The notes: generated by a model not told the origin, from the letters alone. DNA of 32,000 bases from Candidatus Korarchaeum cryptofilum OPF8 (GCF_000019605.1 NC_010482.1:1020001-1052000), one strand, 5' to 3'. Numbered from the stretch's first letter, positions 3,400 through 12,370 are shown. Program-made: numbers and translations.

Positions 3400-5190
3400 T
3401 TGCCAGAGAAGAGGTACAGACAGCCCCTCGTCTCCGTCCTAGGGCATGTGGATTCGGGGAAGACGACCCTGCTGGATTACATAAGGAAGACTAGAGTAGC
3501 TAGTAAGGAGCCGGGCTCGATCACTCAACATGTCGGCGCATCGGAGATACCGGTTGATGTCATCTATGAGGTCTGCAGACCAGTTATGGAGGCTTTAAAC
3601 TTAAAATTTGAGGTCAAAACTGGGGGTCTCCTCTTCATAGATCTACCCGGACACGAAGCTTTCTCAAATCTCAGGAGGAGAGGTGGCTCGGTCGCTGACA
3701 TAGCTATACTAGTCATAGACATAAACGGAGGGGTTCAACCCCAAACTATCGAGTCCATAAACATACTTAGGGAGAGGAGGGTCCCCTTCGTCATCGCCCT
3801 CAATAAGATAGACACGATATACGGATGGAAATCCCAGGAAGGTAGGCCCTTCATAGTCTCAGAGAGGGAGCAGTCTCCCTCCGTCATAGCTGAGCTAGAG
3901 AGGAGGCTTTACAGAGTAGTGGATCAGTTGATGGAGCACGGGATAAATGCTGAAAGGTATGACAGGATAAAGGATTTCACGAAAACTTTCGCGATAGTCC
4001 CAACGAGCGCTGTGAGTGGTGAGGGAGTTCCTGACCTGCTGACGATACTCTTCGGGCTCGTCCAGAGGTATATGCTGGATAGGCTCGAGGTGACCAGTGA
4101 CGAGGGGAAGGGCACCGTGCTCGAGGTCAGGCAGCATCCGGGCCTCGGAACTGTCTTGACCGCGATAATCTATGATGGTACGATTAAGAAAGGAGATACG
4201 ATAGTAGTAGCTGGAAGCAAAGGGCCCATAGTGACTAAGGTGAGGAGCTTATTGGTCCCAGAGCCCCTCCAAGAGATGAGAATGACGAAGAAATTCAGGA
4301 ATATAGATGAGGTATCGGCGGCAGCTGGAGTCATGATATCAGCTCCGGATCTGGAGGATGTGCTAGCTGGCTCCCCTATATACGTGGTGAGGGATCCCTC
4401 GATGCTCGAGGAGATGAAGAGGGAAGTGCAGGAGGAAGTTGAGAGGATCGTGATAAAAACAGACAGGATAGGTGTGATAGTTAAGGCCGATGCATTAGGG
4501 ACTTTGGAAGCCCTGATATCTCAACTTGAGAGGGAGGGGATACCGATAAGGAGGGCCGATATAGGGGAGGTGACGAAAGCGGACGTATTCGAAGCTTCTG
4601 TCATCAGGGGGAGCGATGAGAGGTACTCAGCTATACTAGCCTTCAACGTGAAGGTGAGCGAGGAGATAAAGAGGGAGGCATTATCCAGGGGAGTCGCTAT
4701 CTTCGAGGACGTGATAATCTACACACTTATAGAGAAATTCAAGTCTTATTTGGAGGATTTGAGGAGAAAAGAGGAGGAAAGAGTACTTTCTCATGCTGTT
4801 TTTCCTGCTGAAATCTTAGTTTTGCCTAATTTCGTTTTCAGAAGGAGTGATCCGGCTATAGTAGGTGTTGAGGTTCTCTCGGGCTCAATAAGGCCTGGCT
4901 ATCCGCTCATAAGCGAGAGTGGGAGGAGAATTGGTATCATATTGGATATTCAACACGAGGGTAACAGGATACCGGAGGCGAAGAAGGGGCAGAGGGTCGC
5001 TGTATCGATAAGGGGCGGCGTTGTGGGGAGGAACGTTAAGGAAGGTAAGACCCTTTACACAGAGGTCAGTGAATTCGAGGATGAGAGATCAAGGGAAATA
5101 TACTTCGGTAAGATGAGTGATGAGGAGAAGGAGCTTTACAGGAAGATAATATGGATAAAGTATTCAGGAAGAGCTGATAAGGAGGATTAA
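3400..5190 (+). CDS. infB: Translation initiation factor aIF5B (IF2-type GTPase)
   Basis: 596 aa. G1 motif GHVDSGKTTLLD, DLPGHEAF and NKID are present, followed by the beta-barrel and C-terminal domains typical of aIF5B. TTG start with GGTGAT SD at 3391-3396. No intein-sized insertion. Confidence 0.95.
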   Translation: MPEKRYRQPLVSVLGHVDSGKTTLLDYIRKTRVASKEPGSITQHVGASEIPVDVIYEVCRPVMEALNLKFEVKTGGLLFIDLPGHEAFSNLRRRGGSVADIAILVIDINGGVQPQTIESINILRERRVPFVIALNKIDTIYGWKSQEGRPFIVSEREQSPSVIAELERRLYRVVDQLMEHGINAERYDRIKDFTKTFAIVPTSAVSGEGVPDLLTILFGLVQRYMLDRLEVTSDEGKGTVLEVRQHPGLGTVLTAIIYDGTIKKGDTIVVAGSKGPIVTKVRSLLVPEPLQEMRMTKKFRNIDEVSAAAGVMISAPDLEDVLAGSPIYVVRDPSMLEEMKREVQEEVERIVIKTDRIGVIVKADALGTLEALISQLEREGIPIRRADIGEVTKADVFEASVIRGSDERYSAILAFNVKVSEEIKREALSRGVAIFEDVIIYTLIEKFKSYLEDLRRKEEERVLSHAVFPAEILVLPNFVFRRSDPAIVGVEVLSGSIRPGYPLISESGRRIGIILDIQHEGNRIPEAKKGQRVAVSIRGGVVGRNVKEGKTLYTEVSEFEDERSREIYFGKMSDEEKELYRKIIWIKYSGRADKED

Positions 5191-5387
5191 TCGAATTTTC
5201 TTGAGATTCATGGATAAGATGTCTCTAAGGACTCAAAACAATATGAAGAGGGGATCTGAGTTTCAATTCACAGCTCATGCCAGGAGCTTTCTTGATGATG
5301 AGTGACCTCATCGACCCAGAGCTGCTATGAAGTTCTCGATGGCTGAAGCTTATATATTCTCCTCGGTTCTCACGATGGTGATCCAAT

Positions 5388-5807
5388 ATGTCCAGCAGGA
5401 GGAAGGGTGTCGTCGAGGAATTCTTAGTGCTCGATATAGGAGACCCAAGTACTGGAAAAACTTTTCACCTCAAATTGCCCAAGGAGAGCCTCAGATACTT
5501 CATAGGCAAGAGGATAGGCGAGGAGATCTCGGGCGATCCCTTCGGCTTACCGGGATATGCCTTCAGGATAACTGGAGGGACCGATAGGGATGGCTTCCCG
5601 ATGCATCCCTCCCTACCTACGATGGGGAAGAAGAGGCTCCTCCTATCCTCCCCACCAGGCTTCCATCCTAAGAGGGAAGGGGAGAGGAGGGCTAAGCTAG
5701 TTAGAGGAAGTGTTATTTCAGACGCCATGAGGCAGATAAACCTTAAAGTTATTAAGAAGGGGGATAAACCCCTCGAGGAGATCTTGGGGAAGAGCGAGGC
5801 TTCTTAA
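5388..5807 (+). CDS. rps6e: 30S ribosomal protein S6e
   Basis: 139 aa. ISGDPFGLPGYAFRITGGTDRDGFPM and GERRAKLVRG match S6e. A TTATATAT element at 5350-5357 is a plausible TATA box. Confidence 0.93.
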   Translation: MSSRRKGVVEEFLVLDIGDPSTGKTFHLKLPKESLRYFIGKRIGEEISGDPFGLPGYAFRITGGTDRDGFPMHPSLPTMGKKRLLLSSPPGFHPKREGERRAKLVRGSVISDAMRQINLKVIKKGDKPLEEILGKSEAS

Positions 5808-5816
5808 GGTGATTGA

Positions 5817-7058
5817 ATGAGGGAGATCCTCCAGCCGGAGATGAATGTAGGTACTGCTGGTCACGTCGACCATGGCAAGTCCACCCTAGTCCAAGCTCTG
5901 ACAGGGGTCTGGCCTGAGAGACACAGCGAGGAGTTGAGGAGAGGTATAACTATAAAGTTGGGCTATGCCAATGCCGACCTCAGGAAGTGTCCTTCATGCG
6001 ATGAGCCTAAGTGCTATACAACCTCTAAGAAATGCCCTATCGATGGTAGTGAGACGATATTGCTCAGGAAGATATCACTAGTGGACTGTCCGGGCCATGA
6101 TACATTGATGGCAACTATGCTAGCTGGCTCGACTTTGATGGATGCGGCTCTCTTCATAATAGCCTCTAATGAGCCCGTCCCCCAGCCCCAGACGAGGGAG
6201 CATCTGATGGCCCTGAAGATAATGGGGGTCAAGCAGATAATAGTAGTCCAGACGAAGATAGAGCTGGTGAGTGAAGAGGAGGCCATAAGAAATTATGAGC
6301 AGATTCTGAGATTTCTTGAGGCCAATTTGGATGAGATACCACCGATAATACCTGTATCCGCCCTTCATGGTGTTAATATAGACTTCTTGATAAGGGAGAT
6401 GGTGAGGAGATTCACTCCCCCGCAGAGGGATCCGACTAAAACTCCCAAGATGTACGTAGCAAGATCCTTCGACGTCAATAGACCCGGTACTAGGCCTGAG
6501 AAACTGGTAGGGGGCGTCTTGGGAGGGACCATCATCCAAGGCAGGTTCAGGTTGGGGGATGAGATAGAGATAAGGCCCGGAGCCTACAGGGGAGGTAAGT
6601 TCATCCCCTTAACTACTAAGATAGTGAGTCTGAAGAGCGAGGATACCCCGCTCGAGGAGGCCTATCCAGGTGGGCTGATAGGCGTGGGAACCCTCTTGGA
6701 TCCAGCTCTGACGAAAGCCGATAACATGGTGGGAAGTGTCGTTGGCTTGCCCAATGAGTTGCCACCAGTATGGTCGGAGCTCGACATAGAGGCGAAGTTC
6801 TTCGATAAGATAGTCGGAATGAAGGAGGAGATCTCCGTGACTAAACCTAAGAGCGGGGATTTCATCCAGTTGAATGTGGGTACTGCTACCGTTCCGGCCG
6901 TCCTTAAGGAGATGAGCCATGATCTTATGAGGCTTCTTGTGAGGATCCCCGCTGTAGCGGAGCTGGATCAAAGGGTAGCTATCTCGGCGAGGATAGGGAA
7001 TAGGTGGAGATTGATAGGCTTCGGCCATGTGAAAGGAGGAGTTGAGTACAGATATTAA
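5817..7058 (+). CDS. eif2g: Translation initiation factor aIF2 gamma subunit
   Basis: 413 aa. GHVDHGKSTLVQALTG, RGITIKLGYA, the Cys-rich knuckle CPSCDEPKCYTTSKKCP, DCPGH and QTKIE motifs are present. GGTGAT SD at 5808-5813. Confidence 0.95.
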   Translation: MREILQPEMNVGTAGHVDHGKSTLVQALTGVWPERHSEELRRGITIKLGYANADLRKCPSCDEPKCYTTSKKCPIDGSETILLRKISLVDCPGHDTLMATMLAGSTLMDAALFIIASNEPVPQPQTREHLMALKIMGVKQIIVVQTKIELVSEEEAIRNYEQILRFLEANLDEIPPIIPVSALHGVNIDFLIREMVRRFTPPQRDPTKTPKMYVARSFDVNRPGTRPEKLVGGVLGGTIIQGRFRLGDEIEIRPGAYRGGKFIPLTTKIVSLKSEDTPLEEAYPGGLIGVGTLLDPALTKADNMVGSVVGLPNELPPVWSELDIEAKFFDKIVGMKEEISVTKPKSGDFIQLNVGTATVPAVLKEMSHDLMRLLVRIPAVAELDQRVAISARIGNRWRLIGFGHVKGGVEYRY

Positions 7059-7751: not shown

Positions 7752-7759
7752 TATATATA
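7752..7759. promoter_or_regulatory. Palindromic TATATATA box shared by divergent pgiA and the DUF2207-like operon
   Basis: TATATATA lies 22 nt from the pgiA start codon (7727-7729, minus strand) and 22 nt from ATG 7782 (plus strand). Its centre (7755.5) is the exact midpoint between the two start codons. The spacing implies leaderless or near-leaderless transcripts in both directions. Confidence 0.55.
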
Positions 7760-7781: not shown

Positions 7782-9446
7782 ATGCGTTACCTATGCTTAG
7801 TGGTGTTGTTGCTTCTGATGATCGCTCCCATCATGGCATCGGCCCAGATAAGCTATGAAGTGGAAGATGAGTCGGTGATACTTGAGATAGATGAGTCTGG
7901 GGATGTATTCCTATCTTACAACTTGACGATTCACGTGACCTCCGGGACTATCGCTAGATACGTCGCCATAGGGATGCCTAATTCTAGATTCGACGTATTA
8001 AAGGCTCTAGAGATAAGGAATGGGGAAGCTAAGGAGGTGGAGTATGAGAAAGTCGTTGAGGAATCTTATTATGCTGTGAAAATGCATCCAACAGCTCCAA
8101 TAAATGCGGGGGAGTCTAGAACCTACCATTTGGAGGTAGTGCTCAAGGATTTCATCTACGAGGATTCAACAAATCCAGGGAACGTTGGGCTCAGGTTCAT
8201 ACCATCCTGGTTCGATGCCAGAGTGAGGGCCCTGAGGCTCTGGATAATCCTTCCCCCAGGGGTAGATAATAGTAATAAGGTCAAGAACCAACCGGATTAT
8301 GATAATTTGATAACGCTTGAAGATGGTAGACTGGCCCTTTACTGGGAGAGATACGATCTGCCACCTAGCTACGAGCTTGATGTAGGTGTCTCATTCCCTA
8401 AGGAATATGTAAAATCTTACGTTAAGGGATCTGAAGGTAATGATCTCCTCTCTGCTGTAGCCGGTCTCATATTCTTAGGGGTCCTTGTCTTCTCGATATC
8501 CTTCGTAGTGAGTATAGTGAAGTCCCTCATCGAGAAGTCCGTCTATAAGCCCCCTGAAGTCTCTGTTGAGAGCCTTGGAGTGAATAAGAACTTGAGGCCC
8601 CCTGAGGTCGCTTATCTGAAGAAGTTGGAGGGAAGAGAGATAAGTTACGGGAGGATATTGGCTACTATAGCTCTGGAATTATCGAATAAGGGGCTCATTA
8701 GGGTGAAGAGTGTAGAGCCATTGGATATTGAGAAGTTGAACAACTCCTCCTCACAACTTAGGGCCTACGAGAAGGTCTTCCTCGATTGCTTGAACGGAGG
8801 CACGCCCTCCGAAGATTGTTTAGTGAACGTGATTAAGAGCTTGCATAGTAGGGTCAATAGGGAGATATCAGGCTACTCCAGGCTCGGTACAATAGCTCAT
8901 TATGAGAAGCTCGTCAATTCCATTTGGAAGGAGATATCTCAAGCTCCAATGGAGAAGAGACTAGAGATCCTGAAGGAAAATCTTCCATGGTTACTCACGG
9001 ATGAGAACTTCGAGAGGAATCTGAAGAAGTACTTGAAGGAGGGCTTATCCCCTGATCAAATTTCCCGTCCCATAGGGGGTACCTGGCCATTGGAGGACAC
9101 TTGGATCTGGATCCCCAGGGGAGGCACTATCTACATACCTCTCCCAAGGGAGCCCGCTCGCCCCAGGGATGTCGGAGGACGACCCGAAGCTAGACCCGAA
9201 GTGGAGGCCCCTGTCATAAGTATAGAGAAAGCGGCCGATTCAATAGCCAGATCCATTGAGGGCTTCTCCTCCTCTATCGTGAGGAACATGGAGGATTTCT
9301 CCAACAAGATAGCGAGGACAATAACGCCTGAGAGACCAAGAGGGAGCAGCAAGAGGCATACTCTGTCCTGCGCATGTGTCAGTTGCGCTTGTGCATGCGC
9401 TTGCGTCAGCTGCGCTTGTGCTTGCGCTGGAGGTGGTGTGAGATGA
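7782..9446 (+). CDS. DUF2207-like single-pass membrane protein with a C-terminal Cys/Ala-repeat tail
   Basis: 554 aa. It has a signal-peptide-like N-terminus (MRYLCLVVLLLLMIAPIMASA) and a beta-rich ectodomain with a DUF2207-like pattern. One TM helix follows (aa 222-249, nt 8445-8528), then YKPPEV...RPPEVAYL...GRILATIALELSNKGLI as in DUF2207 proteins. The protein ends ...SCACVSCACACACVSCACACAGGGVR. Confidence 0.8.
   Translation: MRYLCLVVLLLLMIAPIMASAQISYEVEDESVILEIDESGDVFLSYNLTIHVTSGTIARYVAIGMPNSRFDVLKALEIRNGEAKEVEYEKVVEESYYAVKMHPTAPINAGESRTYHLEVVLKDFIYEDSTNPGNVGLRFIPSWFDARVRALRLWIILPPGVDNSNKVKNQPDYDNLITLEDGRLALYWERYDLPPSYELDVGVSFPKEYVKSYVKGSEGNDLLSAVAGLIFLGVLVFSISFVVSIVKSLIEKSVYKPPEVSVESLGVNKNLRPPEVAYLKKLEGREISYGRILATIALELSNKGLIRVKSVEPLDIEKLNNSSSQLRAYEKVFLDCLNGGTPSEDCLVNVIKSLHSRVNREISGYSRLGTIAHYEKLVNSIWKEISQAPMEKRLEILKENLPWLLTDENFERNLKKYLKEGLSPDQISRPIGGTWPLEDTWIWIPRGGTIYIPLPREPARPRDVGGRPEARPEVEAPVISIEKAADSIARSIEGFSSSIVRNMEDFSNKIARTITPERPRGSSKRHTLSCACVSCACACACVSCACACAGGGVR
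9369..9428 (+). repeat. 27-bp tandem repeat (2.2 copies) encoding CACVSCACA-CACVSCACA-CA
   Basis: Unit 1 (9369-9395) is tgcgcatgtgtcagttgcgcttgtgca. Unit 2 (9396-9422) is tgcgcttgcgtcagctgcgcttgtgct. A partial unit tgcgct follows. The units share 23/27 identical bases, and all 4 differences are synonymous third-codon positions. Confidence 0.9.
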
Positions 9447-10753
9447 GCGAGAGAGAGCTATTGATGTTCAATTACGGGGGCCATAAGATTCAGCTTAGGA
9501 TAGATCCTTATGGAATGGGCTCTCTCATTGTAGATGCAAGTAGAGTAGCTTATCTCAATCACACAGCAGCCATTATGATCAAGGCATTCCTCTCAGGAGG
9601 GGATTGGAAGCAAGCAGTTAAAGAACTCAAGAAATATTACAGAGGGATGAGGAAAAGTGAGGTGAGGAGACATTTCGATGAGATAACTGAGAAGATAAGG
9701 ATGTTCATAGATGGTTACGGAGACCCTGTCACGGATCTGGGATTCAAGTATCAGCTCCCCGATGTCACTGTAATGTCCGCTCCTCTCAGAGTAGATCTAA
9801 TCCTCACTTACAGGTGCAATAACGATTGTATCCACTGCTACTCATCGAGCCCCAGGGAAACGGAGGAGCTGAGCACTGAAGATTGGAAAAGAGTTTTGAA
9901 GATATTTCACGGGCTTGGGGTACCTCAAGTCACTTTCACAGGCGGGGAGCCCACCCTGAGGGAGGATCTCGTCGATCTAGTCTCTGAAGCCCAGAAGCTA
10001 GGTATGGTATCCGGGATCGTGACGAATGGGACTTTGCTGAGTGATGATCTCTCTAGGAGATTAGTGGAAGCTGGCTTGGATTACGCTCAAATAACTCTGG
10101 AGTCGAAGGATCCTGAAGTTCATGATTCCATCACCGGGGTTAGGGGGAGCTGGGAGAGGACAGTCAGGGGGATAAAGAACATGGTGAGTACCGGAGTTTA
10201 CGTGAGCGTCAACTCGACCCTCCTGAAGATGAACTCACCGACCATACTGGATACTATCAGATTCGTCGCGGAACTTGGGGTCCACGGCTACTCCCTCAAT
10301 AGAGTCATTTACAGCGGGAGAGCTACTCTCGATATGGAGCCGAGTTTCGAGGAGATGATCAACATAATAACCGAGGCTAAGGAGCTAGCTATAGAGCTAG
10401 ATCTCGATTTCACTTGGTACGGGGTTACGAGGTACTGCGAGATGGATCCAATAAGCATGGGGCTGGGGCTGAAGTTCTGCTCCGCTTGTAGCATCAATCT
10501 CGCTGTAGAACCGGATGGTACTGTTATACCTTGCCAGAGCCACTACTTGAAGCTCGGGAACATACTGAGGGATAGATGGATGGATATATGGTACTCGAAG
10601 GAATGCTTGAGCATAAGGGAGGCAGCTTATATAGGGGATGCCTGTAAGAGCTGCCCCCTGCTCTCTTTCTGCAGGGGAGGATGTCCCTTAGAGGCTGAGG
10701 TGAGGAGCTATCCATTCAAGCCCCCTGAGGTCGAGCCCCATGAACTCCCATGA
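9443..10753 (+). CDS. Radical SAM/SPASM-domain maturase with an N-terminal PqqD-like (RRE-like) domain
   Basis: CNNDCIHC (CX3CX2C, nt 9815-9838) and GGEPTL are present. The SPASM signature is C-SINLAVEPD-G-TVIP-C (CX9GX4C) plus CKSCPLLSFCRGGC (CX2CX5CX3C, nt 10643-10684). I prefer ATG 9443, which gives an ATGA overlap with the upstream stop and has GGAGGTGG at 9429-9436 as SD. The ORF-track start at 9374 lies inside the Cys repeat. Confidence 0.88.
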   Translation: MSERELLMFNYGGHKIQLRIDPYGMGSLIVDASRVAYLNHTAAIMIKAFLSGGDWKQAVKELKKYYRGMRKSEVRRHFDEITEKIRMFIDGYGDPVTDLGFKYQLPDVTVMSAPLRVDLILTYRCNNDCIHCYSSSPRETEELSTEDWKRVLKIFHGLGVPQVTFTGGEPTLREDLVDLVSEAQKLGMVSGIVTNGTLLSDDLSRRLVEAGLDYAQITLESKDPEVHDSITGVRGSWERTVRGIKNMVSTGVYVSVNSTLLKMNSPTILDTIRFVAELGVHGYSLNRVIYSGRATLDMEPSFEEMINIITEAKELAIELDLDFTWYGVTRYCEMDPISMGLGLKFCSACSINLAVEPDGTVIPCQSHYLKLGNILRDRWMDIWYSKECLSIREAAYIGDACKSCPLLSFCRGGCPLEAEVRSYPFKPPEVEPHELP

Positions 10754-11492
10754 GCTCAGATCGATAGCTGGGCTCATAAGGAGGAACTCAGGCAAAGTCG
10801 TAGCTTTCACGGGAGCTGGCATATCGGCCGAAGCTGGGATACCGACTTTCAGGGGGAAGGGAGGGCTCTGGGAGAAGTATGATCCGGAGGAGCTCGCGAC
10901 TCCCCAGGCTTTCTTCAGGGATCCCAAGCTAGTCTGGGATTGGTATTTATGGAGGATGTCCATAATCGCGAGAGCTCGACCGACTCCAGCTCATGAGATA
11001 CTCGCTCTCTGGGAAGATAAGGGCATATTGAAGGGCGTGATAACTCAGAATGTGGATGGCCTCCACCAGAGAGCTGGCTCTAAGAACTTAGTGGAACTTC
11101 ACGGTTCGATTTGGAGGATAAGATGTACTTCTTGCGATAATAAGGTCTACTTGGGCTTCGGGAACCTGCCGGAGAGGGTGCCACCTGAGTGCGATAGATG
11201 CGGCTCCATCATGAGGCCGGATGTAGTCTGGTTCTACGAGCCGCTCCCCAGGGATGAGTGGATGAGAGCTGAAGATATGATCAGATCGGCCAGTTTGTTG
11301 CTTATAATAGGGACCAGCGGGCTCGTGATGCCAGCAGCGACCCTGCCGATGATGGCCCTCCGGAACAACGCTACTTTAGTGGAGATAAATCCTGAGGAAA
11401 CCAATTTAAGTAGCCTCGCTAAGTTCAGGGTGAGGGAGGGGGCTAGCAGGATATTTGTTGACCTTAATGAGATGCTGGAGGGGATCGCTTGA
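10740..11492 (+). CDS. cobB: NAD-dependent protein deacylase, Sir2/CobB family
   Basis: 250 aa. GAGISAEAGIPTFRG, ITQNVDGLHQRAG, ELHGS (catalytic His) and the Zn ribbon CTSC...CDRC are present. The start overlaps the rSAM gene end by 14 nt. Confidence 0.93.
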   Translation: MNSHELRSIAGLIRRNSGKVVAFTGAGISAEAGIPTFRGKGGLWEKYDPEELATPQAFFRDPKLVWDWYLWRMSIIARARPTPAHEILALWEDKGILKGVITQNVDGLHQRAGSKNLVELHGSIWRIRCTSCDNKVYLGFGNLPERVPPECDRCGSIMRPDVVWFYEPLPRDEWMRAEDMIRSASLLLIIGTSGLVMPAATLPMMALRNNATLVEINPEETNLSSLAKFRVREGASRIFVDLNEMLEGIA

Positions 11493-12370
11493 GGATAGTT
11501 AAGTTCGATCGTAAGTTTCTGGAGGATGTTATCTCCATCCACTGCCCCAGGTGGAGGGAGATTCCGTTGAGCATGAGGATAAAGGATTGTGGTTACTGGG
11601 GGGACCCGGAAGTCTTCAGTTGGTATGTGGATGCCCTATTATCAGCGGATGGGAAAATATTGATAGCTCTGAAGGATGATACCTTGATAGGAGAAGCTGA
11701 GATAGTTCCCGAGAGGCTGAAGTGCCCCGTGGGGGATCACGTTTACCTGCAGATGGTCTGGGTTAAGGAGGGGGAGAGGGGTATAGGAGTTGGTAGGAAG
11801 CTAGTTGAGGAATGTAGTAAATTAGCGAGGGATATGGGATTCTATGCTCTCGATACAATACCATATGATGAGGCCATCCCCTTCTTCGAGGCCCTCGGAT
11901 TCTCGGAGATAGAGTCGCAAGTGCTCATGGAAGCGAAGCCCAGACCGGCCCCTGAGCAGCCTAAGATAGAGGAGATAGGAAAGAGGGAACTTCCAGTAGC
12001 TGTCCAGATGTTAGCAGGACAGACAAGACCATCGGCCCTCCTTTGGGAGCTCCTCTGGGGTAGAGAAGCTGTGGGCCTCCCACCCCCTAGGGTCTTCAAG
12101 GTCAGGGTCGGCCTTTGGGAGTTCGTCCTGGGGCTTTTCAGGCCGACAGCTGATGATAACTACCTATATGCTCTGATATGGGGGCCTGAGAGGGCAAATT
12201 TGGGTCAGATTTTCGATTCAGCTGAGATGGCCCTATCGATAGCATACGATATGGGAGCAACTAAAGTGAGGACCCAGACATGGTGCAAATACAGAGGGGC
12301 TTTCGAAGCGGCCGGTTTTGAGGCGATAAAACGCATCAAATGGATGAGGATGAAAATAAAGGAGGATTAG
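11489..12370 (+). CDS. GNAT-family N-acetyltransferase with an extra GNAT-like C-terminal half
   Basis: 293 aa. The acetyl-CoA loop is VWVKEGERGIGVGRKLVEE (R-x-x-G-x-G). The second half (aa ~165-293) ends in a GNAT-like AFEAAGFE segment but has no Q/RxxGxG loop. TTG start overlaps the cobB stop (TTGA at 11489-11492), with SD GGAGGGGA 9 nt upstream. Confidence 0.8.
   Translation: MRIVKFDRKFLEDVISIHCPRWREIPLSMRIKDCGYWGDPEVFSWYVDALLSADGKILIALKDDTLIGEAEIVPERLKCPVGDHVYLQMVWVKEGERGIGVGRKLVEECSKLARDMGFYALDTIPYDEAIPFFEALGFSEIESQVLMEAKPRPAPEQPKIEEIGKRELPVAVQMLAGQTRPSALLWELLWGREAVGLPPPRVFKVRVGLWEFVLGLFRPTADDNYLYALIWGPERANLGQIFDSAEMALSIAYDMGATKVRTQTWCKYRGAFEAAGFEAIKRIKWMRMKIKED

Follow-up and report, generated by a model that had tools for sequence, protein, structure and literature searches.

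In a 32,000-nucleotide stretch of the genome of Candidatus Korarchaeum cryptofilum OPF8 (GCF_000019605.1, NC_010482.1:1020001-1052000), called the window below and numbered from its first letter, two overlapping genes encode a membrane protein with a tail rich in Cys and Ala (c1) and a radical S-adenosylmethionine (SAM) enzyme of the SPASM type (c0), and the tail of the former is, on the whole, probably the substrate of the latter. The initial annotation had described positions 7782-9446 as a 554-aa protein linked through an ATGA overlap to a radical SAM gene, a description borne out by the open reading frames (ORFs) and their translation, with the TGA of c1 at 9444-9446 and the ATG of c0 at 9443-9445 (Table 1). 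The C-terminus of c1 reads SCACVSCACACACVSCACACAGGGVR, such that nine of the 12 Cys residues of the whole protein fall among its last 30 residues.

This tail is the most conserved block of c1, with a mean column identity of 0.84 against about 0.45 elsewhere. While the identity of the c1 body among homologues falls to about 18-30%, homologues that are about 30% identical over the body still end C[AV]CAC..CAC[AV]CACVSCACACA[GS]GG[VA]G, and the final CACACAGGG is invariant at the amino-acid level in 70 of 78 tails, the other eight differing only at the first Gly (G to H or S). The codons of these 78 tails do vary: TGC and TGT are used about 50:50, and at each Ala or Gly position all four possible codons are found. 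Free synonymous variation within an invariant peptide shows that the tail is no artefact of a DNA repeat and that the peptide is under strong purifying selection, which spans Ala and Gly as well as Cys. The tail is also present in 129 of 144 further top representatives of the family, the rest being mostly truncated fragments, and by this conservation it is a hallmark of one subfamily, far beyond what chance would produce.

The tail is written in two dialects. The archaea of the TACK group use ...CACACACVSCACACAGGG(VG/AG/AR), while in Chloroflexota, Acidobacteriota, Heimdallarchaeota and Methanomassiliicoccales CACACACAGCACACAGGGR or CACACACACACAGGGR comes after a poly-Gly/Ser spacer. In two proteins, P0233 (659 aa) and P0262 (675 aa), the Cys-Ala run lies inside the chain, with about 90 more residues after it (...GGGFCFRLRKGMK...); these could be read-through artefacts or real variants.

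The relatives of c0 were collected by an enzyme-anchored scan, which considered one genome per species and used the enzyme alignment only. The scan returned 80 full-length relatives of 38-68% identity, distributed among the Korarchaeota/Thermoproteota, Bathyarchaeia, Heimdallarchaeota, Methanomassiliicoccales, Chloroflexota, Acidobacteriota and Aminicenantes, those of the Chloroflexota including the cultured Levilinea saccharolytica and a metagenome-assembled genome (MAG) of Anaerolinea thermophila. At 77 of the 80 loci an ORF of about 530-680 aa with a (CA)n...CACACAGGG tail lies upstream of the enzyme on the same strand, the gap between the end of this ORF and the enzyme match being 0-205 nt, or 730 nt at one locus. 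A survey of synteny had been named beforehand, in the initial annotation, as a possible refutation of the pairing, and its outcome upholds it. In the reverse direction the enzyme was found downstream of c1 at eight of ten informative metagenome loci, an estimate resting on few loci, as the c1-anchored scan used a low-complexity tail pattern and 11 of its 600 matches were true relatives. Independent gene calls on a 687-kb contig likewise place a gene with Radical_SAM and SPASM domains directly after c1. Levilinea saccharolytica is thus a cultured host, and Anaerolinea and Methanomassiliicoccus, in which the module was seen in MAGs, are probably others.

Over 2075 pairs, identity between c1 proteins (tail removed) tracks identity between the adjacent enzymes, with a Pearson coefficient of 0.92 and a Spearman coefficient of 0.76, so that the two genes are inherited and diverge as a unit. 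The proposals that the adjacency is incidental, or that the Cys/Ala run is a hydrophobic C-terminal membrane anchor or a repeat at the level of DNA, draw on the hydrophobicity of the TACK-type tail (a Kyte-Doolittle score of 2.1 over 19 residues) and on the fact that (TGYGCN)n is formally a simple repeat, yet they must contend with synteny maintained across two domains of life and with codons that are not in fact repeated, and we regard them as barely credible. The anchor in particular was rejected, as the tails of the bacterial, Heimdall and Methanomassiliicoccales proteins consist of 13-17 hydrophobic residues between Gly runs and are too short to span a membrane. Similarly, the initial annotation had allowed that such tails might be a generic trait of DUF2207 proteins beside which the enzyme lies by accident; the near-constant presence of the tail among the subfamily representatives, together with the correlated divergence of the enzyme, leads us to reject this alternative.

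An apparent fusion of c1 with the enzyme at one locus (L031, 6228-9263, an ORF of 1011 aa) was also rejected: the Cys tail lies there in a different frame as a 38-aa ORF, and the apparent fusion is probably an assembly frameshift. At several other loci the c1 ORF is split in the same manner.

Table 1. Features of the two-gene locus (window positions; AF2, AlphaFold2; pLDDT, predicted local distance difference test; RRE, recognition element of ribosomally synthesised and post-translationally modified peptides)
Feature	Position	Strand	Residues or detail	Basis
c1 gene, Cys-tail membrane protein	7782..9446	+	554 aa, type I bitopic	ORF and translation
Predicted signal peptide	7782..7844	+	aa 1-21, ...IMASA/Q	Kyte-Doolittle peak aa 3-21; AF2 helix 2-17
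Extracytoplasmic all-beta domain, ribophorin I / DUF2207-N-like fold	7851..8399	+	aa 24-206	AF2 pLDDT >90; Foldseek
Single transmembrane helix	8442..8537	+	aa 221-252	AF2 helix; Kyte-Doolittle peak 228-246; Lys+Arg bias
Cytoplasmic winged-helix-like unit and helical bundle	8544..9038	+	aa 255-419	AF2 secondary structure
Disordered Pro/Arg-rich linker	9048..9218	+	aa 423-479	pLDDT <50; lowest conservation of c1 (0.21-0.32)
Two amphipathic helices	9222..9320	+	aa 481-513, ...ADSIARSIEGFSSSIVRNMEDFSNKIA...	AF2 helices 481-499 and 503-513, pLDDT 66-83
Cys/Ala core and tail end	9366..9443	+	aa 529-554, SCACVSCACACACVSCACACAGGGVR	Sequence; family conservation
Shine-Dalgarno-like motif for c0, made by tail Gly codons	9429..9435	+	GGAGGTG	Sequence
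Stop/start overlap, translational coupling	9443..9446	+	ATGA	Sequence
c0 gene, RRE-radical SAM-SPASM enzyme	9443..10753	+	436 aa	ORF, Pfam, AF2, Foldseek
N-terminal RRE / PqqD-like domain	9455..9709	+	aa 5-89	AF2 topology; PF05402 in homologues; SuiB alignment
CX3CX2C radical SAM cluster motif	9815..9838	+	C125/C129/C132	Invariant in enzyme alignment
GGE SAM-binding motif	9941..9949	+	aa 167-169, FTGGEPT	Invariant in enzyme alignment
SPASM region	10436..10684	+	Cys 332, 346, 349, 364, 388, 401, 404, 410, 414	(Nearly) invariant columns; Pfam SPASM

The catalytic motifs of the enzyme itself are intact. The CX3CX2C and GGE motifs and the complete SPASM signature reported in the initial annotation recur both as Pfam matches (Radical_SAM, PF04055, 9e-31; SPASM, PF13186, 6e-10) and as conserved alignment columns. 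The SPASM spacing, C349-X9-G359-X4-C364 together with C401-X2-C404-X5-C410-X3-C414, constitutes a set for two auxiliary Fe-S clusters, and CX3CX2C and CX2CX5CX3C are both kept in 76 of 78 first-position homologues. By its motifs, fold and Cys set c0 is thus to be placed in the radical SAM superfamily with a SPASM domain. The PqqD-like N-terminal domain of the initial annotation stands with a qualification: the window enzyme has no Pfam match to PqqD, while 17 of 24 full-length homologues match it (PF05402, best 9e-8), and the topology of the AF2 model of c0 (mean pLDDT 84, predicted template modelling score 0.84) fits such a domain. The first 90 or so residues model as four strands followed by three helices (E5-11, E14-20, E25-30, E34-39, H40-50, H55-62, H71-89), in agreement with a recognition element, or RRE, of the kind that guides the maturation of ribosomally synthesised, post-translationally modified peptides (RiPPs). 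The interpretation thereby also withstands a second refutation named in the initial annotation, an N-terminal domain that does not model as a winged-helix RRE.

The best Foldseek matches of the c0 model in the PDB are SkfB (E 2e-17, 394 columns) and SuiB (E 5e-17, 450-474 columns, TM-score 0.69), maturases which align with it over the full length, their own RREs included; PqqE and anSME rank after them (anSME at E ~3e-13). Likewise, the best PDB matches by sequence are SkfB (1e-34) and PqqE (4e-28). The NCBIfam collection gives a more distant picture, in that none of the best 25 of 79 models matched by the window enzyme reaches its cutoff, the scores in bits against cutoff being 141/500 for NirJ2, 138/381 for PqqE, 104/300 for SkfB, 118/265 for MftC and 90/400 for the ACGX family (TIGR04340). 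The families matched below cutoff comprise SkfB, AlbA, StsB, MftC, ScmE/F, GeoRSP, WgkB, ACGX, HxsC4, PqqE, NirJ and AhbC/D. For the Levilinea enzyme, too, no model reaches its cutoff among the best 25 of 60, and none of the five Levilinea module genes has an NCBIfam match above cutoff. c0 is clearly a peptide-maturase-type radical SAM/SPASM enzyme that lies outside every named subfamily.

For c1, the initial annotation had predicted a signal peptide, one transmembrane (TM) helix and a C-terminal part of about 300 aa in the cytoplasm, and on this architecture hydropathy, the AF2 model and the distribution of charge agree. The mean number of Lys and Arg residues in 64 homologues is 0.8 in the 15 residues before the TM helix and 3.9 after it, a bias which places the C-terminal 300 or so residues of c1, and hence the tail, in the cytoplasm. 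Signal cleavage is predicted after ...IMASA. The AF2 model of c1, built on an alignment of 25 sequences, has a mean pLDDT of 78 and is disordered after residue 513. Within the first cytoplasmic unit (H273-282, H289-302, E306-310, E315-318 and helices through 328-419 in this model) lies a block, Y-x-P-P...E-x-x-G...R-G-L-T-A-V-E-A-A, which at 0.69 is the second most conserved in the family. The amphipathic helices nearer the tail conserve A485, E493 and a pattern of Phe/Val residues across the family, and are a candidate leader-like docking segment for the RRE.

Further components were found by clustering the neighbours of all enzyme-anchored loci. A protein of about 120 aa (c3), which has two TM helices, carries a CxxC...CxxC zinc ribbon at its C-terminus and ends EEPKW, is encoded at 41 of the 80 loci, directly upstream of c1 and with a stop codon that often overlaps the c1 start (L069:5758-6183 in Levilinea; L020:5924-6295). 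A second enzyme paralogue follows directly downstream at 36 loci, mostly in Chloroflexota (L069:9292-10452), which keeps the RRE-like N-terminus and GGEP and has lost CX3CX2C and the SPASM Cys residues in all 36 cases (median 2 Cys); on these losses it is a catalytically dead pseudo-radical SAM protein. A class I SAM methyltransferase (c2; PF08241, 1e-20) that conserves the motif EPDYGG accompanies c1 at 45 loci (for example L069:10428-11216, L030:9259-10026, L085:2259-3086 and L092:7788-8534), and its best PDB relative is LahSB (1.8e-10), which we take to be a lanthipeptide C-terminal methyltransferase. Searches of the window with c3 and c2 by tblastn gave chance matches only, and since neither gene is thus found in the Korarchaeal window, the pair of c1 and the enzyme is the core of the system. 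At two Promethearchaeota-like loci (L026:5157-7284 and L039:7941-10050) the enzyme is followed by the methyltransferase, with no c1 in the 5-8 kb upstream; the enzymes there end ...CCHHNVGG or ...CCPQNVGG, and the L039 methyltransferase is fragmented by N-masked stretches.

How might these components work together? We propose that c1 and c0 are the core of a conserved module whose RiPP-like substrate is built into a full-size membrane protein. A disordered linker of about 55 residues would tether a cassette composed of the two amphipathic helices, a short basic/Ser/Gly spacer, the Cys-Ala(/Val/Ser) core and a GGG(R/VG) end. The RRE of c0 would dock on the segment of c1 upstream of the core, the radical SAM site would abstract hydrogen from core residues, and the SPASM auxiliary clusters would support the formation of covalent links, the likeliest of these being several intramolecular thioethers that join Cys sulfur to a carbon of Ala, Val or Ser, as sactionine or ranthionine links do. 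Links of this kind would stiffen an otherwise flexible tail and leave a rigid structure rich in sulfur at the inner membrane face. In this scheme the dead paralogue would be a chaperone or scaffold, c2 would carry out further tailoring and c3 would be a partner in the complex. It is established that RRE-bearing radical SAM/SPASM enzymes modify adjacently encoded peptides, often at Cys-rich C-terminal cores as in the sactipeptides and the SCIFF/ranthipeptides, and that SPASM enzymes such as anSME and QhpD can act on whole proteins. The features of the present system that match RiPP pathways such as SkfA/SkfB, SCIFF/CteB and SuiA/SuiB by analogy are an RRE fused to an intact catalytic core, a Cys-rich neighbouring peptide, a tether with helices, a cytoplasmic site, co-evolution and a methyltransferase.

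Thioether cross-linking is plausibly the chemistry of the tail. It is favoured because Cys is the sole reactive side chain in the core, because Ala, Val and Ser offer alpha- or beta-hydrogens beside every Cys, and because the nearest characterised enzyme is a thioether synthase. A different radical reaction on the tail could instead be envisaged: Cys might be oxidised in the manner of anSME, giving formylglycine or a thioaldehyde, or residues might be epimerised or joined by C-C cross-links. This would suit the good structural matches to anSME (E ~3e-13), an inventory of Cys compatible with full ligation of both auxiliary clusters, which is the state found in anSME and SuiB, and the position of the enzyme outside the named subfamilies. 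Yet the tail contains no C/S-x-P/A-x-R motif of the anSME kind, anSME itself lacks an RRE, the best solved match by sequence is the thioether synthase SkfB, and the tail lacks the aromatic, Lys, Asp and Glu partners used by known C-C or ranthionine cross-links, so that we consider these reactions rather improbable.

As to the fate of a cross-linked tail, no protease or exporter is conserved in the neighbourhoods of the 80 loci, and the product therefore most likely stays on the c1 protein. The contrary proposal, that c1 is an oversized precursor from which the modified C-terminal cassette is cleaved and released as a small Cys-rich RiPP, has in its favour the resemblance of the cassette to a leader and core borne on a disordered linker. 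Apart from the missing protease and exporter, it must accommodate a cassette that is cytoplasmic and a body of about 480 aa that is conserved, structured and co-evolving with the enzyme, which would not be expected of a disposable carrier, and it seems to us very unlikely.

Several observations weigh against the tail being a substrate of c0 and against thioether formation as its modification. Three of the 80 enzyme loci, the two Promethearchaeota-like loci mentioned above and one from Anaerolineales, have no c1 within 5-8 kb. Since no subfamily cutoff is reached, the chemistry of c0 is not assignable by homology. The conserved SPASM Cys residues seem sufficient to ligate both auxiliary clusters fully, which would leave no evident open site for a substrate thiolate of the kind found in CteB. 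CxC repeats are, moreover, classic metal-thiolate ligands, typical of metallothioneins. Finally, one clade has no active enzyme near c1 within the 3.5-6 kb available. L085 (1-2319) and L086 (25-2371) carry a pair of c1 paralogues in tandem, both of which have additional TM segments and a CACACAGCACACACAGGGR tail of their own; the methyltransferase gene comes next, and the 3.5 kb available downstream contain no radical SAM gene. At L092 c1 is flanked by the methyltransferase and, upstream, by a homologue of the enzyme family (4682-6001; hhalign 99.9%) that retains CX2CX5CX3C and is devoid of CX3CX2C and GGE. This clade implies that an invariant tail can persist without an active radical SAM enzyme beside it.

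It is in this context that the main rival has to be weighed, namely that the tail is an unmodified metal-thiolate or Fe-S site, c1 being a membrane-tethered metallothionein or cluster carrier, and its radical SAM neighbour a partner, a cluster donor or acceptor, or an enzyme with another substrate. Besides the nature of the repeats, a beta-hairpin about the central VS/AG would put all the Cys residues on one face, as can be deduced from the sequence; c1 occurs in the clade just described without a neighbouring CX3CX2C enzyme, the L092 homologue keeping only the SPASM-type CX2CX5CX3C of these motifs; and the retention of the dead paralogue at 36 loci, mostly in Chloroflexota, makes it evident that this fold is of use for binding without catalysis. 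Against such a site speak the preservation of every catalytic motif in 76 of 78 adjacent enzymes, the fusion of an RRE to an active radical SAM/SPASM core, which is a signature of peptide modification, an invariance of Ala and of the GGG end that exceeds the needs of metal ligation, and the co-conservation of a methyltransferase. We consider an unmodified site unlikely, and it is in any case compatible with the tail being a substrate, as a modified tail could also bind metal. On the side of the proposed module, a natural fusion, P0332 (948 aa), joins a dead RRE-bearing radical SAM paralogue, 36% identical to the free-standing L092 version, to the N-terminus of c1, and provides a Rosetta-stone hint that proteins of the RRE-radical SAM fold bind c1 physically.

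Taken at its widest, the proposal that the tail is modified by c0 would describe an ancient RiPP pathway operating in cis on a full-size membrane protein and spread over at least 1,500 clusters at 50% identity. On the cytoplasmic tail of a ribophorin-I-like protein it would assemble a new prosthetic structure, rich in sulfur and attached to the protein, for instance a poly-thioether ladder or a templated metal-sulfur site, with the dead enzyme as its chaperone and the methyltransferase and the zinc-ribbon protein as further partners, and it would serve the core envelope physiology of anaerobes and not secondary metabolism. We advance this fuller picture tentatively, as one that may well hold without yet deserving to be called probable.

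Comparison with known systems makes clear both what is familiar and what is not. SkfB/SkfA, AlbA/SboA and CteB/SCIFF resemble c0/c1 in combining an RRE with a radical SAM core and a SPASM or twitch domain, in having the substrate gene immediately upstream, and in the Cys-rich core near the C-terminus of the substrate. In sactipeptides the Cys sulfur is joined to an alpha-carbon and in ranthipeptides to the beta- or gamma-carbon of another residue. The substrates of these systems are, however, leader-core peptides of 40-60 aa, here replaced by the tail of a 554-aa membrane protein; c1 is not a short leader-core precursor with proteolytic release and export; its core is a strict Cys-Ala repeat; the NCBIfam scores of c0 against SkfB, AlbA and StsB are far below cutoff; and the distribution of c1/c0 over archaea and Chloroflexota looks housekeeping-like, unlike that of the sactipeptide and ranthipeptide systems.

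QhpD/QhpC and anSME are SPASM precedents for the modification of Cys within proteins, QhpD installing several Cys thioethers and anSME oxidising Cys or Ser. Their substrates are soluble enzyme subunits and the enzymes have no fused RRE, whereas c0 has an RRE and c1 is membrane-bound; in addition, QhpC links Cys to Asp or Glu, of which the c1 tail has none, and the CxPxR motif of anSME substrates is absent from it. Membership of the anaerobic sulfatase-maturating enzymes, which is marked by the C/S-x-P/A-x-R sulfatase motif in the substrate and by the lack of an RRE, is excluded on both counts by the c1 tail and c0. PqqE/PqqD and MftC/MftB share with c0 a PqqD-type recognition domain and a SPASM domain, PqqE being the second-best match in both NCBIfam and the PDB, but their substrates are small peptides that become diffusible cofactors without Cys chemistry, unlike a Cys-tail protein. 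Closest in concept are the ACGX-repeat system (TIGR04340/TIGR04341) and other pairs of radical SAM enzyme and target peptide described by Haft, in which a SPASM enzyme accompanies a neighbouring Cys-repeat protein; the repeat and the carrier protein are different here, and the TIGR04340 score of c0 is far from its cutoff. Metallothioneins and bufferins share dense CxC motifs with the c1 tail. Metallothioneins, however, are soluble and unmodified, and bufferins are small peptides that are exported and owe their modification to MNIO enzymes and not to radical SAM enzymes; PMC12452194 describes bufferins as Cys-containing RiPPs that chelate copper.

The relationships of c1 itself are remote. The top Foldseek matches of its model are chains of ribophorin I (8b6l_O, 8pn9_E and 6s7t_E; E 8e-11 to 2e-9), with N-domains of M1 aminopeptidases next in rank; despite an E of 8e-11 the TM-score with ribophorin I is about 0.27, owing to the placement of the domains. 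The window protein has no Pfam or NCBIfam match, even at E<=10, and among 25 homologues there are weak matches to PF09972 in four (best 8e-5), to DUF2207_C (PF20990) in one and to Ribophorin_I (PF04597) in three. A PDB search with the family profile yields no significant match, human ribophorin I being at E 0.16. Accordingly, the DUF2207-like ectodomain of the initial annotation survives as a matter of remote homology, attested by these weak PF09972 matches and by the ribophorin I fold, and finds no hidden Markov model match in the window protein; 'DUF2207-like' denotes at best a remote relationship in sequence and not family membership. A search of 1.84 billion representative proteins with the profile defines a family of 1585 clusters (at 50% identity) at E<=1e-3 and of 363 at E<=1e-30. 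DUF2207 proteins and ribophorin I (OST1) share with c1 a plan comprising a signal peptide, a beta ectodomain, a TM helix and a cytoplasmic helical domain, with one luminal-type domain in c1 and two in ribophorin I. In five family members (P0226, P0235, P0240, P0244 and P0248; 766-838 aa) the N-terminal beta ectodomain is present twice, an arrangement reminiscent of the paired luminal domains in ribophorin I.

We know of no Cys tail or radical SAM partner in the DUF2207 or ribophorin I families. No gene for STT3 or another subunit of the oligosaccharyltransferase (OST) was noted among the conserved neighbours of the 80 loci. Proteins resembling OST1 occur in archaea of the TACK and Asgard groups, and the cytosolic domain of Asgard OST1 binds ribosomes (PMC11417166). 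Comparison with the anti-phage defence models of PADLOC gave no specific match, the enzyme showing only generic radical SAM similarity to viperins and c1 and c3 none.

At the level of the gene, the GGAGGTG provided by the tail Gly codons lies 7 nt upstream of the c0 ATG at 9443 and is a putative ribosome-binding site for c0. A start at 9374, given by a mechanical list of ORFs, was rejected as an alternative frame through the Cys-tail codons, and an alignment with 23 homologues supports the ATG at 9443. The +2 frame over 9374-9442 reads MCQLRLCMRLRQLRLCLRWRWCEM and spuriously lengthens the c0 ORF; phantom ORFs of this 'LCLCLC' kind recur at the corresponding position in other loci (L013, L029 and L060). 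Upstream of c1, within a divergent intergenic region of 52 nt, a TATATATA box at 7752-7759, about 23-30 nt before the ATG, would fit an archaeal promoter with little or no leader. A scan for sigma-70 promoters and terminators remained at background level, as a bacterial promoter model is uninformative for an archaeon.

The operon continues beyond c0 with a gene for a Sir2 deacetylase (10740-11492), which overlaps the c0 stop by 14 nt, and one for a GNAT acetyltransferase (11489-12370), with a 4-nt overlap between the two. By clustering of neighbours across the 80 loci, this Sir2 and GNAT arrangement is confined to close Korarchaeal relatives and lies outside the conserved module. Other neighbours in the window encode aIF5B, S6e, aIF2-gamma, a cupin-type glucose-6-phosphate isomerase and a Bmp-type ABC transporter, and the nearest homologues are from named Korarchaeota.

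No model in Pfam (2025) or NCBIfam (June 2026) describes c1, c3 or the c0 subfamily, and the full-text literature searched, which did not extend to subscription-only papers, contains no description of the tail, of a DUF2207-radical SAM pairing or of the system. Given the precedents of anSME and QhpD and the known RRE-guided modification of Cys-rich cores, the system is not categorically new. What is striking is the proposed application of RiPP logic to a family of ribophorin-I-like membrane proteins that is widespread in both prokaryotic domains and exceptionally conserved, while to our knowledge RiPP-type radical SAM chemistry has almost always been studied on small, exported peptides. The system is also experimentally tractable, being a two-gene module with cultured hosts and a convenient C-terminal tryptic peptide, HTLSCACVSCACACACVSCACACAGGGVR, which holds nine Cys residues.

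The comparative evidence is thus strong that RiPP-type machinery accompanies, and would act on, a conserved membrane protein's tethered tail in anaerobes of both prokaryotic domains, many of them uncultivated and a few in culture. If this is true, it would represent a new class of post-translational modification of proteins, probably with a new structure derived from Cys and Ala, and a natural example of leader-guided modification in cis that would be useful for engineering. It would also give a first functional handle on the large DUF2207/ribophorin-I-like family.

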